The notes: a model not told the origin generated them from the sequence alone. A stretch of 64,000 nt of DNA from Alphaproteobacteria bacterium (GCA_015062345.1 SUUV01000001.1:21588-85587); one strand, 5' to 3'; shown: positions 7,014-39,367, counted from the first letter of the stretch. A program made the numbers and translations.

Positions 7014-7258
7014 CACATACTCCATATATCTACAAAATAAAAGATTCTTTTTGATTGGCAAGAGTTTATAAACATATCCCCCAAAAAATATTTATCATCG
7101 GAACACAACTTCCAAATTGGTCTTGACACTAAACCAAAAATAAACTACAAATATAACTGAACAGTCAAGTTGGCTGTTTGGAACCTAACAATTCCTATGT
7201 AACGCGTCTTTTAGTATAGGGACGTTAAATTTTATACGCTGACCGGTTATTTAAAAAA

Positions 7259-7362
7259 TGACTGGAAGGCGGTAAAATAAGCCTTGCGGTCAATATACCG
7301 CGCTATTTCGTTATTGTAGTTGTTAGCTTCCAGTCGCTTTTTTGTTAAGAGCGATTTTTTTA
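7259..7362 (+). repeat. copy 1 of a conserved structured element of about 100 nt, bounded by 9-bp inverted repeats (gactggaag...cttccagtc) and followed by a short hairpin and a T-run
   Basis: About 80% identical to the reverse complement of 11712-11811. It lies 35-50 nt upstream of the downstream gene, in that gene's orientation. Confidence 0.6.
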
Positions 7363-7396
7363 TTTAAGTAACTTAATTAAAAAAAGGAAGATAATT

Positions 7397-8185
7397 ATGA
7401 AATATACAAATCAAAATGGTCGTTCAATTCTTGTCAAGTGTGATTTAGAAGCGCAGGCTTTTTTGAGTGCCGTGTATAAAAGCAATACACAAACGAAAAA
7501 AAGACAAGCTGATAAATTGCAATGCGGAAGAAGTATGGTAGAGATGCTTGGCGTGCTTGCTATTATCGGTGTTTTATCGGTAGGAGGTATTGCCGGCTAT
7601 TCAAAAGCCATGAACAAATTTAAAATCAACAAAACCACAGACCAGGTTTCCGTTCTTGTTGCAAATTTGCGTACGATGTTTGCAGCTCAAGGAAACTATA
7701 GTGGATTAACCGTTAAAACCGCAATAGATTTTGGTGTTGTCCCTGATGATATGATTACAACAAGCACAACCACAGGAGGGGAAGGCAATGAAACAACCAC
7801 CTCAACAACACTTAAAAATGCATTTGGCGGAGATGTTGAAATTGCAGTATCTCCGGTTAAAAATGGTGATACAGACAGCGCATTTTATGTTGCATATGAT
7901 GGTTTGTCACAAGAAGCATGTGTAACACTTGCAACCGGTGACTGGGGTTCCGGTCAAGCCTCCGGTTTAATAGCCATGATTGCAGCTCCTTCTTTAGCAA
8001 CTGCCAAAGCTGCTGCCGCAAACGCATATGCTAACGGTAATGGTGTGGCAGGCTCAGCTACTACGGCGGCAGTAGCTCAACCGGGTGGAAGTACCCTTAA
8101 AACCCCAATGCCTGTTGCAAATGCTGTAGCAAGTTGTACTGCTGCACAAAATGCCACTCCTGCAGTGCTTTGGAAATATTACTAA
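7397..8185 (+). CDS. type IV pilin-like protein (prepilin-type N-terminal cleavage/methylation motif)
   Basis: G|RSMVEMLGVLAIIGVLSVGGIAGY has Glu at +5 after the Gly and a hydrophobic N-terminal helix. A strong AGGAAG RBS precedes the ATG. The C-terminal region is rich in Ala, Gly and Thr. Confidence 0.6.
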   Translation: MKYTNQNGRSILVKCDLEAQAFLSAVYKSNTQTKKRQADKLQCGRSMVEMLGVLAIIGVLSVGGIAGYSKAMNKFKINKTTDQVSVLVANLRTMFAAQGNYSGLTVKTAIDFGVVPDDMITTSTTTGGEGNETTTSTTLKNAFGGDVEIAVSPVKNGDTDSAFYVAYDGLSQEACVTLATGDWGSGQASGLIAMIAAPSLATAKAAAANAYANGNGVAGSATTAAVAQPGGSTLKTPMPVANAVASCTAAQNATPAVLWKYY

Positions 8186-11711: not shown

Positions 11712-11811
11712 TTGTCGCTTTGATGAAAAGCGACTGGAAGTTGAGAACAATACCACTAGTTATTGTGCGATATATTGACTTTGAAAGTTTATTTTATCGC
11801 CTTCCAGTCAT
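11712..11811 (-). repeat. copy 2 of the inverted-repeat-bounded structured element, in minus orientation
   Basis: Its reverse complement, tgactggaaggcgataaaataa...cttccagtcgcttttcatcaaagcgac, aligns with 7259-7362. It is followed (in gene sense) by a perfect 8-bp hairpin gtcgcttt/aaagcgac and lies 22 nt upstream of the lipoprotein ATG. Confidence 0.6.
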
Positions 11812-12020
11812 AAAACCGGTAGGCGAAAATATCGTCTTTTCGCATAGACGCTAGTGGATATTAGGTTCTCACACCTAAATCAGGCCATCAATCCTGACAC
11901 TCACATAATATATAGTTTATGGAAAGAAATCAAGAATTTTTATTTTATTCATATGGTATTGTTGTTAATAATGCTTTTAACTTGTTGGCGTTGATATAAT
12001 TACTTTTGAAATAAATAATT

Positions 12021-12446
12021 TTATTGGTGCGCTATGTTTGAAAAAAAAGTATTTTTTTCAAGGCCGGAATGGCTTCGCAATATTATTGCTTCGCCGACCT
12101 TGTTCGCTCGGGCATTCCGCCCGACCGGCGTATATATCCGCCTGCGAACTGCGGTTCAAACCGGCACCGTGCCGCTTCTCACCCGACCTGACATACCAAC
12201 AAAAAAAGCCCACCCGAAAGGGTGAGCTTTTTTTATTGGTGCGCTATATTTGAAAAAAAGTATTTTTTCAAGGCCGGAATGGCTTCGCAATATTATTGCT
12301 TCGCCGACCTTGTTCGCTCGGGCATTCTGCCCGACCGGCGTATATATCCGCCTGCGAACTGCGGTTCAAACCGGCACCGTGCCGCTTCTCACCCGACCTA
12401 ACATACCAACAAAAAAAGCCCACCCGAAAGGGTGAGCTTTTTTTAT
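12021..12446. repeat. two tandem 210-212-bp GC-rich repeat units, each starting with a copy of the tRNA-Leu 3' end (ttattggtgcgcta) and ending with the tRNA terminator hairpin
   Basis: 12021-12232 and 12233-12442 are nearly identical, differing by a few SNPs and one A. They are about 55-60% GC against a background of about 33%. The 61-71-aa ORFs inside them are almost certainly spurious. Confidence 0.85.
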
Positions 12447-12533
12447 TGGTGCGCTAGGCCGGAATCGAACCGGCACGGGATTGCTCCCAACAGATTTTAA
12501 GTCTGCAGCGTCTACCTGTTCCGCCACAAGCGC
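12447..12533 (-). tRNA. tRNA-Leu (anticodon UAA), encoded CCA
   Basis: The reverse complement folds as a cloverleaf. The acceptor stem GCGCTTG/CTAGCGC has one mismatch. The anticodon stem is GCAGA/TCTGT with loop CUUAAAA, giving anticodon UAA. There is a long variable arm GGGAGCAATCCC. The T-arm is GCCGG-TTCGATT-CCGGC, and the 3' end is ACCA. Confidence 0.8.
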
Positions 12534-36248: not shown

Positions 36249-36755
36249 TTATTCTACAAATACTAACTGCATACTACCTACATATGTACCGGCAAGATAA
36301 TCAGCTATAGCCTCCGTCCTTATAGTTGGGGTTGAAACTAATACAACCCCTTCACTGTCAAATTCATCTGATTGCAACTCAAAATTAGGTTCTACTACAA
36401 AATGAGGGTAACTGGTTCCATCTGCATCATTTGTATGAATAAGACTTATGTAAACATCATCTATAACCAGATTTAAATCCCCCTGATAATCTGTTGTACA
36501 ATAAAAAGTATAATCAGATTTACTTGATGATACAACCATATTAGGATTAGGCATTCCGTTTGTTATAAGATCATCACCATTCTCACCTAGCATACTATTA
36601 ACGACTATAGTTCCAAAATCCATCTTTTCACAATCAAATTTAACAGCATATTCAATTTTTACTTCAGCCTCTAAAGATGTATAAGCTGTAGTAGCATTTG
36701 CTGATGTTGCAGCCATTAAAGCTACAGCAGATAAAAGAAAATATTTTCTCATCAA
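36249..36755 (-). CDS. SCPU/Csu-type fimbrial major subunit, paralog 2
   Basis: MMRKYFLLSAVALMAATSANA signal peptide, a DFGTIVV motif, and a C-terminal GTYVGSMQLVFVE. Confidence 0.65.
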   Translation of the reverse strand: MMRKYFLLSAVALMAATSANATTAYTSLEAEVKIEYAVKFDCEKMDFGTIVVNSMLGENGDDLITNGMPNPNMVVSSSKSDYTFYCTTDYQGDLNLVIDDVYISLIHTNDADGTSYPHFVVEPNFELQSDEFDSEGVVLVSTPTIRTEAIADYLAGTYVGSMQLVFVE

Positions 36756-37045
36756 TTTAATCCTTAAAAATAGTTAAACTTAATTTGAAAAGCTAAAAAT
36801 TAGCCTTCCAAGACGCATCATAAACCGTTTTTTTTTTTTGCAAGTAAAAAGAGTCGTTTAAAAGATTTAAATCAAAAATGAGGTGACGGTGTTGTCTCCT
36901 TTACCGTCATATCGGTGCCCGAACTTTAGTTCGGAATAGACACCGGTATCCAGGGAATAATTTAGCTATATTACCACCTGGACTCCGGCATCAAGTGCCG
37001 GAGTGACAGTTAGGAGGTGGTTGCAAAGTTTTGAGAAAATATTTA
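36756..37045 (-). promoter_or_regulatory. conserved upstream module, copy B (minus orientation); T12 tract at 36828-36839
   Basis: Its reverse complement aligns with copies A and D along its full length. The palindrome is changed to cgaactaaagttcg, a compensatory double change relative to caagctaaagcttg. Confidence 0.75.
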
Positions 37046-37230
37046 ATATAAACATTGTCGCCAAACGGTGATGGTGTCTAACAAACATCTCAAAACAATA
37101 GCTCCTTTTTTTGGGGAGTGGAGGATATAAGGCTTTATGCTCGAATAACTCTGACTGCGTTTTGACAGTTTGTTAGCTCCCCGCTTTGATTTTTTCTCAA
37201 GGCGGTTTTTTATTACGCATATTCTTACAA

Positions 37231-38688
37231 TCAATTAGATTTATCTTTTACTGTAACATATTTTTGATTCGGAGCATGTGAAGAAGATTGAGTTCTGATA
37301 AGCAATCCTTTATCTATGAGTGGTTTTATAATTTTATTCATAAAATGAACTCTACTTGTATATTTAGAAATAGTCATAATTTCAACCAAAGATTTAGGCT
37401 CAATACAAAAATCTAATATTTTCTCTATAAGATATGTTACTTGATCACTTACTTGATCACTTACTTGATCACTTACTTGATTACTTACTCTATGTATAAT
37501 ATCATCAAAACAATTTATTTGCCAATCTAGTTTAAATACTGTTCCATCTGTCAACATCGGAGCATATCCTGCATATATTTTTGCATACTTAGCAATATTC
37601 CTAATGCCGGACCCAAGTTCTTCTGCCCAACCTATTTCCTTAAAAAAGCGCGCAATAACAGGATTTTTCGGATATGGTGTACTATTATCCGGATTAATAT
37701 TACCATAAATATATGGTTTATTTCCGTTTTCCGCATATATTTTATTCTTTTCAATAATTAATCTGGACGGATAATGATCTGTAAACTCTCTATGCATCAG
37801 AAAATTAATTGCAATTTCTCTAAATAAAATACTCCTCAAATCAACTCGAGCATCTCCTTCTAAATAAAACGGTGAAGGCAAATGCTTAGCAATAAACATC
37901 ATTATACGCTCATAGCTTTCTATAAGATTAGTTCTGATATCATCTCTATCATCATATCTTTCAATGTTTCTGATTCTTAAAATCAAATCTGTCTTATAGT
38001 GAGGTAAAACAGATTGAATAACTTCATCTTTTCCAAACAATAAAACACAAGCTAGTGTATATCCTTCTTTACCCGATAAATAATCTGTCTTATACAAACC
38101 GGCACTTTTTAACAGCTGTTCATTTGTAAGATTCTTCCAAGGATGGTCAGCCTTCCTGATTACAGCCATTGTACGACATTTGTTTATAACATCTTCTCTT
38201 AAATGATTTATGCTGATTCCGGAATAAATATCATTTTCTGAATATGTCTTATCTTTATTAGCATACAATTTTGCAATTTGCTTTGGTTGTTGAGTAATGT
38301 CAATATCTCCATCAGCAGCACTGCGTATATAGATTTTATTACAACAAAAATGAACTTCTGAACTTGCAGGAACAAGAATATATAAAATCTGTTTACCCTC
38401 GATTTTTATTTCTTCAACCGATAAATATAAAGGAGGATTAAATTTTGAGATATTATTTATGGTATTTGTAAAATCTTTCTTCATTTGAGCAATTTTATCT
38501 TTATCAATACCCAAAACTTCACCATTATCACTAACACCCAGTAAAATATGCCCTCCCAAAGTATTTGAAAAAGCACATACGGTTTCATAAATGCTTTTAG
38601 GTAACAATCCGTGTTGTGCGCTTTTAAATTCGGTTCTTATCCCTTCACCATGAGTTATAAGTGTTTTTATATTTTCAATCATCTGCAA
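37231..38688 (-). CDS. AlbA_2 (divergent AAA / Schlafen-like) domain protein with a C-terminal wHTH; putative DNA-binding regulator
   Basis: The N-terminus EGIRTEFKSAQHGLLPKSIYETVCAFSNTLGGHILLGVSDNGEVLGI is the classic AlbA_2 signature. The C-terminal winged helix is often annotated as RecG-C-terminal-like. It contains a (VSDQ)n repeat. Confidence 0.7.
   Translation of the reverse strand: MQMIENIKTLITHGEGIRTEFKSAQHGLLPKSIYETVCAFSNTLGGHILLGVSDNGEVLGIDKDKIAQMKKDFTNTINNISKFNPPLYLSVEEIKIEGKQILYILVPASSEVHFCCNKIYIRSAADGDIDITQQPKQIAKLYANKDKTYSENDIYSGISINHLREDVINKCRTMAVIRKADHPWKNLTNEQLLKSAGLYKTDYLSGKEGYTLACVLLFGKDEVIQSVLPHYKTDLILRIRNIERYDDRDDIRTNLIESYERIMMFIAKHLPSPFYLEGDARVDLRSILFREIAINFLMHREFTDHYPSRLIIEKNKIYAENGNKPYIYGNINPDNSTPYPKNPVIARFFKEIGWAEELGSGIRNIAKYAKIYAGYAPMLTDGTVFKLDWQINCFDDIIHRVSNQVSDQVSDQVSDQVTYLIEKILDFCIEPKSLVEIMTISKYTSRVHFMNKIIKPLIDKGLLIRTQSSSHAPNQKYVTVKDKSN
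37434..37489. repeat. in-frame 12-bp tandem repeat (ttacttgatcac, three perfect copies plus a degenerate fourth) encoding (VSDQ)n
   Basis: Direct reading gives gttacttgatcacttacttgatcacttacttgatcacttacttgattacttactc. Confidence 0.8.
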
Positions 38689-38780
38689 TCCTTTTTAACC
38701 TATACAAAAAAGGATAATCAATTATTTTAAAAAAGACAGAGAATTTTCCAAATTATCCTATCATAAATATTTTACTTTCT

Positions 38781-38920
38781 TTACCTCATTTTTGATTTAA
38801 ATTCTTTAAACGACTCTTTTTACTTGCAAAAAAAAAAAACGGTTTATGATGCGACATGAGAGGTAAATTTTTGCACCTTTCAAATGTACTTAAACTTAAT
38901 TTTTGTAAAGGAATTAAAAA
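38781..38920 (+). promoter_or_regulatory. conserved upstream module, copy C (proximal 140 bp only); A12 tract at 38828-38839
   Basis: cctcatttttgatttaaat...ctttttacttgc-A12-cggtttatgatgcg...; the distal hairpin region is absent. Confidence 0.7.
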
Positions 38921-39367
38921 ATGAGAAAATATTTTCTTTTGAGCGCAGTTGCACTCTTGGCAACAACCACCGCCAATGCAACCACAGACTATGCCGAAGT
39001 AACAGCTCGTGCAGAAATTCAAGTGGCTAATGAATCTGCTTGTGATGATATAGATTTTGGCACTATTGTTGTTAAGGACGGAAACGAAGCTTTTACTATC
39101 GGATTTTCAGGAATAACCGGTGACGGAGAATCTGATGTTATATCCGTTGGCGAATATACTAAGTATATTCATTGCACAAATATGGGAGATTCTGCAAATA
39201 TCGATGAAGAGACAATAATACTAAAAAATAAAACCGGTGATGAAATGTCATTACGTCTTATGGGTGGCATTCCTAGTGATGAAGAATTTGCTGTTTATCT
39301 TGATGTTCCGAACAATGTTCATTCGGGTGAGTATACCGCTTCATTTACAATTGCTATAACCTATTAA
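38921..39367 (+). CDS. SCPU/Csu-type fimbrial major subunit, paralog 3
   Basis: MRKYFLLSAVALLATTTANA signal peptide, a DFGTIVV motif, and a C-terminal GEYTASFTIAITY. Confidence 0.7.
   Translation: MRKYFLLSAVALLATTTANATTDYAEVTARAEIQVANESACDDIDFGTIVVKDGNEAFTIGFSGITGDGESDVISVGEYTKYIHCTNMGDSANIDEETIILKNKTGDEMSLRLMGGIPSDEEFAVYLDVPNNVHSGEYTASFTIAITY

Follow-up and report, generated by a model that had tools for sequence, protein, structure and literature searches.

A stretch of 64,000 nucleotides (nt) from an Alphaproteobacteria bacterium (GCA_015062345.1 SUUV01000001.1:21588-85587), which we call the window, carries two copies of a structured RNA leader, copy A on the plus strand and copy B on the minus strand, each of which lies 5' of an envelope-protein gene in sense. 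The complete unit is about 200 nt long and comprises a promoter, a 5' hairpin, a pseudoknotted core, a terminator-like hairpin and a Shine-Dalgarno (SD) sequence. Related units stand before surface-protein genes in metagenome-assembled genomes (MAGs) from animal guts, and their helices are kept by compensatory changes. From the sequence, a conserved structured RNA is predicted to form the 5' leader of envelope-protein mRNAs, and we regard these leaders as a new family of cis-regulatory leader RNA, absent from Rfam 15 and from the searchable literature. We consider it probable that the leader is a riboswitch-like attenuator that co-regulates surface proteins in cis. No gut or rumen alphaproteobacterium of this type is in culture, and we know of no work on gene regulation in the group.

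Two divergent copies and their family

A first-pass annotation of the window had described an element of about 100 nt that was bounded by terminal inverted repeats and present twice. The repeat pair proved to be real: copy A carries GACTGGAAG at 7260–7268 and CTTCCAGTC at 7327–7335, and copy B carries the same two sequences at 11809–11801 and 11740–11732 on the minus strand. The 21-mer GACTGGAAGGCGRTAAAATAA had two exact matches in the window, compared with none in 100 shuffles. The extent of the element had to be redrawn. The repeats are separated by 58 nt in copy A and 60 nt in copy B rather than by about 80 nt, and this interval is 67% identical between the copies rather than about 80% (the whole annotated span is 69% identical). 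The repeats are also internal, so that the annotated segment is only the 3' half of the ~200-nt unit; the similarity between A and B runs about 100 nt further upstream, as far as the promoters, and takes in the downstream hairpin. As paralogues, the two copies are only 64–69% identical. What had been read as a terminal inverted repeat is in fact an RNA helix between two segments that we call S_mid (the left repeat) and S_down (the right repeat). The promoter-like TTGACA-17-TACAAA sequence was found on the plus strand, and each copy sits 5' of a gene in sense (Table 1). A stem followed by a T-run had been reported for both copies; copy A has both (the stem, then T7), but copy B has the stem without the T-run.

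The window is itself part of a 111-kb metagenome contig (JGI 3300031555). A scan for the 21-mer, using one genome per species, returned 68 loci. One of these, in Serratia symbiotica (L014, 5115–5135), shared nothing beyond the 21-mer, had no match to the covariance model (CM) described next, and was set aside as a chance match. The 67 true loci were in MAGs from human gut, rumen and other animal guts. Nearly all are labelled Alphaproteobacteria, Rhodospirillales, "Azospirillum", "Acetobacter" or "Rickettsiales", and two bins are labelled Lachnospiraceae and Bacteroidales; several MAGs hold two to four copies. The CM (R1) was built from 65 non-redundant instances, on which it scored 98–155 bits (window copy A 132, window copy B 118), and it also found copies that lack the 21-mer (L033b, 94 bits; L043b, 82; L011b, 61; L025b, 53). 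A loose metagenome pattern that omitted both repeats, AAGGCGGTAAAATAAN{8,16}AATAT, added loci from gut and rumen samples, 26 of the 80 fetched being real by CM. With a broader model (R2) there were no further divergent copies among the collected loci, and a weak third copy in the window was lost with default filters. The 21-mer was not found in viral contigs, and a blastn search of the leader against plasmids gave no match. Three loci have tandem cassettes of promoter plus leader before one gene (L011, 2412–2811; L033, 285–655; L076, 654–1063), an arrangement that recalls tandem riboswitches. In L011 the first copy is canonical and the second has a variant switch (GGCAGGAAGG/CUUCCUGCC), and in L033 the second copy is changed at one S_mid base (GGCUGGAAGG).

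Every instance with a neighbouring gene is in sense orientation to it, and a start codon in the same orientation lies 36–78 nt downstream in 64 of 73 instances. No downstream open reading frame (ORF) was present within the ~300 nt scanned for window 37067–37185, L037, L039 and L063. The gene of copy A (7397–8185) encodes a PilS/Bundlin-type pilin (Pfam), and that of copy B (11690–11295) a BamE-like lipoprotein, after which come two more lipoprotein ORFs. Small outer-membrane (OM) beta-barrels account for 19 of 43 downstream products (Pfam: OMP_b-brl, Opacity, OmpA_membrane, Surface_Ag_2); the same 43 include at least five PilS/Bundlin-type pilins, two BamE-like proteins and several lipoproteins (e.g., Bor), and a few look cytoplasmic (GT8, RNase T, D12 methylase). 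The shared control of two envelope genes that the first-pass annotation had envisaged is thus backed by gene context, and widens to OM beta-barrels, pilins and lipoproteins in many species.

Both window copies folded well below their shuffles (z-scores: copy A, −6.3; copy B, −5.2). We tested nine helices (45 pairs) on a plain MAFFT alignment that was not fitted to structure (A3). Results showed that 90.7% of cells were paired, compared with 34–45% when partners were slid by 1–3 columns, and the covariation score was 0.34 versus no more than 0.12 in the controls. Thirty pairs had changed on both sides, and none of 500 shuffles reached any observed measure. A CM-based alignment of 86 instances (A6) was fitted to the nested helices, and the MAFFT result is therefore the more conservative of the two. 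In A6, 95.6% of cells were paired (slid controls, 35–42%) and 36 pairs had double changes; the pseudoknot helices, which were outside the model, were still paired (P1 97.5%, P6 99.7%, PK2 88.7%).

The individual helices, located in Table 1, behaved as follows. P1 was 97.5–99.6% paired with covariation at all four pairs (GAGG/CCUC elsewhere, GGAA/UUCC in copy A, UAGG/CCUA in copy B). The helix a:a' joins the P1 loop to the 7 nt directly 5' of CUUCCAGUC and had double changes in all seven pairs, and the variable helix b:b' was 93.4% paired with covariation at six of six pairs (A6). P3 (CGUC:GACG) was paired in 96–98% of cells, although it is optional and absent in a few members. PK2, which joins the P3 loop GURUA to UAYAC, was about 89–90% paired, with G-C/A-U covariation at two positions. 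P4 (S_up:GACUGG, where S_up is a third segment 5' of S_mid) was 92–95% paired, P5 (GCGGUA:UACCGC) 99.8–100%, with the double change GCGAUA/UAUCGC in copy B, and P6 95–99.7%, covarying as CUAU/AUAG, CUGU/GCAG and CAAU/AUUG. The 5'-terminal hairpin P0 was present (at −4 kcal/mol or lower) in 94% of 72 distinct instances, with a mean of −7.1 versus −2.3 in shuffles. Invariant unpaired nucleotides, including the A-rich internal loop of P5, lie within the core. A local hairpin GCGGU..ACCGC in the minimum free energy (MFE) fold of copy A was not kept in copy B or L053, and P5 was preferred to it.

At gathering score, Rfam 15 matched only tRNA in the whole window and in 15 diverse loci. With E up to 10, copies A and B matched no riboswitch family and gave only spurious sub-threshold matches, among them osmY on the terminator and SD (25.7 bits vs. 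a threshold of 46.9) and wcaG antisense (18.5 bits vs. 42). In the literature, searched as full text and in the supplements of a human-microbiome structured-RNA survey (PMC8040213), no paper had the core sequences or such a motif.

Switch segments and a proposed mechanism

Four segments of the leader are mutually complementary: S_up, the SD-like S_mid, the anti-SD S_down, and the SD of the gene itself, GGAAG. All 65 instances have the same S_down (CUUCCAGUC), a segment that formed no part of the pattern by which they were selected. S_mid (GACUGGAAG) was paired with S_down in 99.9% of cells, and in one subgroup S_up and S_mid form a perfect hairpin of 10–11 bp (GCCUUCAGUC/GACUGGAAGGC). We attribute the extreme conservation of these 9–10 nt to the need for three or four partners to stay complementary. 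The few departures from the consensus changed in concert. In L124, with S_mid GACCGGAAGG and S_down CUUCCGGUC, S_up provides the G needed by the changed S_mid base. L011b and L025b share S_mid GGCAGGAAGG; the former has S_up CUUUCUUGC, S_down CUUCCUGCC and the SD GGAAGG, and the latter S_up UUUCCUGC and S_down CUUCCUGCU. L095b has S_mid GGACGGAUGU, S_down ACAUCCGCC and the SD AGGAUGU. The third window copy (37067–37185), an orphan and so without SD, reads AGCUCC, GGGGAG and GCUCCCC for S_up, S_mid and S_down.

The two pairings open to S_mid are similar in predicted energy: P4 was −15.9 (A) and −15.7 (B) kcal/mol, and the S_mid:S_down duplex −14.8 (A) and −15.0 (B) kcal/mol when computed as an intermolecular duplex with no loop-closure cost. 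In copy A the terminator stem begins with the 3' nucleotides of S_down, and the CUUCC of S_down is complementary to the SD. Leaving the S_down nucleotides out of the terminator hairpin of copy A weakens it from −10.4 to −5.2 kcal/mol, and in copy B the duplex of S_down with the SD region is worth −7.3 kcal/mol. Across the family, 55 of 65 instances, copy A included, continue directly into a hairpin with a U-tail; the base of this hairpin is made of the last 3–4 nt of S_down, and its sequence covaries. Of 65 family genes, 47 use GGAAG, complementary to CUUCC, as their SD (usually in the form AAGGAAGUU); the figure for the remaining long ORFs of these loci is 19 of 242 (8%). The best sigma-70-like match, often TTGACA-17-TAnnnT, ends 25–34 nt 5' of P1 in 49 of 81 distinct upstream regions; from this position relative to P1 we infer that the RNA starts at the base of P0.

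These features suggest the following mechanism. A leader of about 200 nt would be transcribed from its own sigma-70-type promoter and begin with P0. Its core would be held compact by interlocked pseudoknots (P1 loop with a', P6 loop with b, P3 loop with UAYAC), with P4 and P5 surrounding the A-rich loop. In the OFF state, S_up would hold S_mid in P4, leaving S_down free to begin the stem of the intrinsic terminator; in transcripts that read through, S_down would pair with the SD. In the ON state, S_mid:S_down would form instead, so that half of the terminator stem is lost and the SD is freed. The in-silico ground state of copy A is the OFF state: the MFE fold of 7150–7400 has P4 and the terminator formed and CUUCC paired to the SD GGAAG. 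We propose that the core, in which the A-rich internal loop is invariant, detects an effector and so tips the balance between OFF and ON; many envelope genes (small OM beta-barrels, type IVb-like pilins, lipoproteins) would be controlled together. Termination control is not universal, because the subtype to which copy B belongs has no U-tract; this subtype would, by its sequence, act on translation only.

A small ligand is the most likely class of effector, by analogy, because the anatomy is riboswitch-like. More tentatively, we put forward a fuller version: the leader would represent a new class of riboswitch, with a core that detects a small signal, and would switch a surface-protein regulon, and terminated leaders might also repress sister GGAAG SDs in trans. 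If true, terminated leaders exposing the invariant CUUCC would link the copies into one circuit. Given that the regulon consists of pilins, OM proteins and lipoproteins, the best candidates for the signal would be a second messenger or a metabolite related to the envelope or the host.

Features of the window

Table 1. Positions of leader features in the window, counted from its first nucleotide; minus-strand features are given in the 5' to 3' direction of the RNA.
Feature	Position	Strand	Remark
Copy A, promoter-like TTGACA-17-TACAAA	7123–7151	+	read from sequence
Copy A, P0 (AACAGUC..GGCUGUU)	7160–7178	+	5'-terminal hairpin adjoining P1; MFE fold
Copy A, P1 hairpin (7180–7195)	GGAA 7180–7183 : UUCC 7192–7195	+	covariation
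Copy A, loop a CUAACAA : a'	7185–7191 : 7320–7326	+	H-type pseudoknot with P1
Copy A, b GUAACG : b' CGUUAU	7199–7204 : 7309–7314	+	covariation
Copy A, P3 hairpin	CGUC 7205–7208 : GACG 7221–7224	+	paired 96–98%
Copy A, PK2	P3 loop GUAUA 7214–7218 : UAUAC 7233–7237	+	covariation
Copy A, S_up GCUGACCGGUU	7238–7248	+	5' strand of P4, partner of S_mid
Copy A, S_mid GACUGGAAGG	7260–7269	+	left "inverted repeat", SD-like; partner S_up or S_down
Copy A, P5	GCGGUA 7269–7274 : UACCGC 7296–7301	+	encloses conserved A-rich internal loop AAAUAA / CAAUA
Copy A, P5b hairpin	GCC 7281–7283 : GGU 7288–7290	+	inside P5; covaries
Copy A, P6	CUAU 7303–7306 : GUAG 7316–7319	+	encloses b' 7309–7314; covaries
Copy A, a' UUGUUAG	7320–7326	+	after P6; pairs with P1 loop
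Copy A, S_down CUUCCAGUC	7327–7335	+	right "inverted repeat", partner of S_mid
Copy A, intrinsic-terminator-like hairpin and T-run	7332–7363	+	hairpin 7332–7356; −10.4 kcal/mol
Copy A, SD GGAAG and start codon	7386–7399	+	SD 7386–7390; ATG 7397 of pilin gene 7397–8185
Copy B, promoter-like TTGATT-17-TATTAT	11933–11905	-	
Copy B, leader core	11897–11732	-	CM 117.9 bits
Copy B, P0	11897–11880	-	
Copy B, P1	UAGG 11877–11874 : CCUA 11865–11862	-	
Copy B, a : a'	11871–11866 : 11747–11742	-	
Copy B, S_up; S_mid; S_down	11825–11814; 11809–11800; 11740–11732	-	
Copy B, platform hairpin GUCGCUUU..AAAGCGAC	11734–11714	-	without U-tract
Copy B, platform with SD and start codon	11734–11688	-	SD GAGG 11699–11696; ATG 11690 of BamE-like lipoprotein gene
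Third copy, divergent orphan	37021–37211	+	core 37067–37185; CM 19.1 bits, E = 0.003 (window-only search, filters off)
Third copy, promoter-like TTGCAA-17-TAATAT	37021–37049	+	
Third copy, P1	GAUG 37070–37073 : CAUC 37086–37089	+	architecture read by eye
Third copy, a : a'	37078–37085 : 37169–37176	+	by eye
Third copy, b : b'	37090–37096 : 37159–37165	+	by eye
Third copy, S_up AGCUCC; S_mid GGGGAGU; S_down GCUCCCC	37100–37105; 37113–37119; 37176–37182	+	by eye
Third copy, strong terminator and T6	37181–37205	+	

The third copy has no sense gene downstream of its core (37067–37185); the next feature is a convergent ORF of 485 amino acids (aa) on the minus strand (37231–38688). The copy is perhaps a remnant, or else a small RNA in its own right.

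Several other observations were made around the three copies. In the pilin of copy A (7397–8185, plus strand), about 37 aa are inserted into the N-terminal leader (MKYTNQNGRS-ILVKCDLEAQ...KLQC-GRSMVEMLGV), where its orthologues 3' of the leader RNA in other MAGs read MKYTNENGRSMVEMLGV. Just upstream of the copy B promoter, at 12019–12456, is a 210-bp tandem repeat (2.1 copies, 97% identity) that overlaps the 3' end of tRNA-Leu(taa) (12447–12533, minus strand). The repeat unit begins with the reverse complement of that end and, judged by its sequence, resembles an att-site-type duplication that an integrative element left behind.

On either side of the third copy and the 485-aa ORF lie paralogous secreted-protein genes at 36249–36755 (minus strand) and 38921–39367 (plus strand), whose products both begin MRKYFLLSAVAL. 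They share a conserved upstream block (36756–36900, minus strand; 38780–38920, plus strand) with an A12 run and a promoter-like CTTGCA...TATGAT. The 485-aa ORF, which has SDQV repeats, lies between these paralogues and may be an insertion. Upstream of the block of the 36249–36755 gene, at 36900–37015 (minus strand), a G+C-rich hairpin ACUCCGGCACUUGAUGCCGGAGU lies within a CCACCU...AGGUGG pairing and could be another structured element.

Alternative explanations and related systems

The first-pass annotation had offered a cis-acting leader, such as an attenuator or riboswitch expression platform, as one of several possibilities. Our data support this and extend it from the platform alone to a unit of about 200 nt that includes the whole sensor. 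A number of observations weigh against such a reading. The context of the 43 downstream genes gives no clue to a ligand, and a metabolite riboswitch would not usually be expected to have structural envelope genes as its regulon. The U-tract is missing in the copy-B subtype (window copy B, L026, L034, L064). Changes in P4 are mostly wobble, because S_mid is nearly invariant, and an extended P4 (AUUUUAC..GUAAAAU) competes with P5 plus PK2, both alternatives keeping their pairing in the copy-B subtype. The covariation of S_mid with S_down comes from few independent events: three among the 86 aligned sequences (5 cells), plus two more distant copies read by eye. In addition, S_mid:S_down crosses a:a' and b:b', so that a further pseudoknot or partial unfolding is needed. 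The enrichment of the GGAAG SD could stem partly from shared ancestry of duplicated cassettes. Lastly, all of the sequences are MAGs or metagenomes, and because they are phylogenetically related, the counts given here overstate the number of independent events.

Among the alternatives, the same switch might have an operator other than a small ligand: a protein, a small RNA (sRNA), a 30S subunit on the SD-like S_mid, or transcription kinetics. The regulon fits such an operator, being made up of structural envelope proteins, which in other bacteria are under post-transcriptional control by sRNAs and proteins; GGA motifs in both S_mid and the SD, and the silence of gene context on a ligand, fit it as well. 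However, the size of the core, its pseudoknots and its invariant unpaired nucleotides are riboswitch-like, and no conserved regulator gene adjoins copies A or B; we think this explanation possible but would not favor it. We are more doubtful that the leader is chiefly a trans-acting sRNA of about 190 nt that ends at the terminator and pairs through its anti-SD CUUCC with other SDs of the family, cis control being secondary or absent. The unit does have its own promoter and terminator, orphan copies exist with no ORF within ~300 nt (window 37067–37185, L037, L039, L063), S_down is invariant, and GGAAG is the common SD of the regulon. Yet 64 of 73 instances have a gene close by at a constant spacing, the SD changes along with the S_down in cis to it in L095b, and three-way intramolecular covariation explains the invariance without a target in trans. 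A small RNA from the TTGACA promoter, also suggested by the first-pass annotation, may arise as a by-product of premature termination, and the third copy fits this.

A constitutive 5' untranslated region (UTR) that, like the ompA leader, only makes the mRNA more stable or raises its translation and does not switch would agree with the 5'-terminal hairpin P0 and with downstream OM proteins and pilins that are probably highly expressed. We judge it quite improbable, as such a UTR needs neither a terminator directly 5' of the SD (55 of 65) nor exclusive pairings of similar energy, nor the co-variation of S_up, S_mid, S_down and SD. There is very little to expect from a ribosome-mediated, trp-type leader-peptide attenuator: the logic of overlapping hairpins (1:2 / 2:3 / 3:4) is the same, 46 of 80 distinct leaders have AUG, UUG or GUG at the start of S_mid, and stop codons occur in GGUAAAAUAA, but neither start codons nor SD-like sequences are conserved, and only 12 of the 80 have an ORF that runs through S_up behind an SD-like sequence. 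We reject, as no more probable, the mobile element that had been proposed, namely a miniature inverted-repeat transposable element (MITE) or small mobile repeat with terminal inverted repeats that landed 5' of two genes. The element is multi-copy (2–4 or more per MAG) and has an inverted repeat of 9 bp, cassettes are duplicated in tandem in L011, L033 and L076, and the unrelated gene families downstream show that the promoter-leader cassette has clearly been duplicated or recruited. In contrast to a MITE, the repeat is internal: all members are conserved beyond it, for about 100 nt on the 5' side of GACTGGAAG and for about 30 nt on the 3' side of CTTCCAGTC. Because these flanks are conserved RNA and promoter sequence, the termini of an element are not definable. 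Orientation is always sense, spacing to the start codon is fixed in 64 of 73, no phage or plasmid copies were found, and A and B, at 64–69% identity, keep pairing in the helices that differ through compensatory changes that are seen across the family (30–36 pairs).

The riboswitch-like attenuator is the reading that we prefer. One RNA element before major surface proteins points to one post-transcriptional circuit, and the surface proteins concerned are the molecules that meet host and phages. As a well-supported and uncatalogued structured RNA, with an unusual core of interlocked pseudoknots and a four-way switch, the leader is a good candidate orphan riboswitch; its covariance model could mark leaders and correct gene starts in many MAGs.

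The comparison with known systems places the leader between several of them. MITEs such as Correia of Neisseria, ERIC, RUP and BOX are likewise short, multi-copy and equipped with inverted repeats near gene starts, but in the leader the repeats are internal, orientation and spacing are fixed, changes are compensatory, and copies within a genome are highly divergent. The control of OM protein mRNAs in Enterobacteria, by the ompA 5' UTR stem-loop and by sRNAs of the MicA/RybB type, also acts at the SD and also involves a protective 5'-terminal hairpin; the leader differs in carrying the anti-SD itself, together with a terminator and a tertiary-looking core, and shows no sequence relationship. 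In the trp and his attenuators, the pairings S_up:S_mid, S_mid:S_down and S_down:terminator 3' arm have their counterparts in the anti-antiterminator, antiterminator and terminator, whereas the leader is without a conserved leader peptide and has a large conserved sensor domain and added SD sequestration. Among riboswitches whose expression platforms use a terminator, sequester the SD, or do both, the c-di-GMP-I (GEMM) and c-di-GMP-II classes, which respond to cyclic di-GMP (c-di-GMP), often lie 5' of pilin, adhesin and outer-membrane genes. The leader departs from riboswitches of this type in having no match in Rfam 15 and no ligand assigned to it, and the double pseudoknot of P1 loop with a' and P6 loop with b is, to our knowledge, not the architecture of any class. 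It shares with them a pseudoknotted domain in the 5' UTR that shows covariation, contains invariant unpaired nucleotides and precedes a terminator and anti-SD, as well as several copies per genome before surface-protein genes and tandem arrangements. By analogy, its surface-protein regulon resembles the regulons of second-messenger riboswitches.

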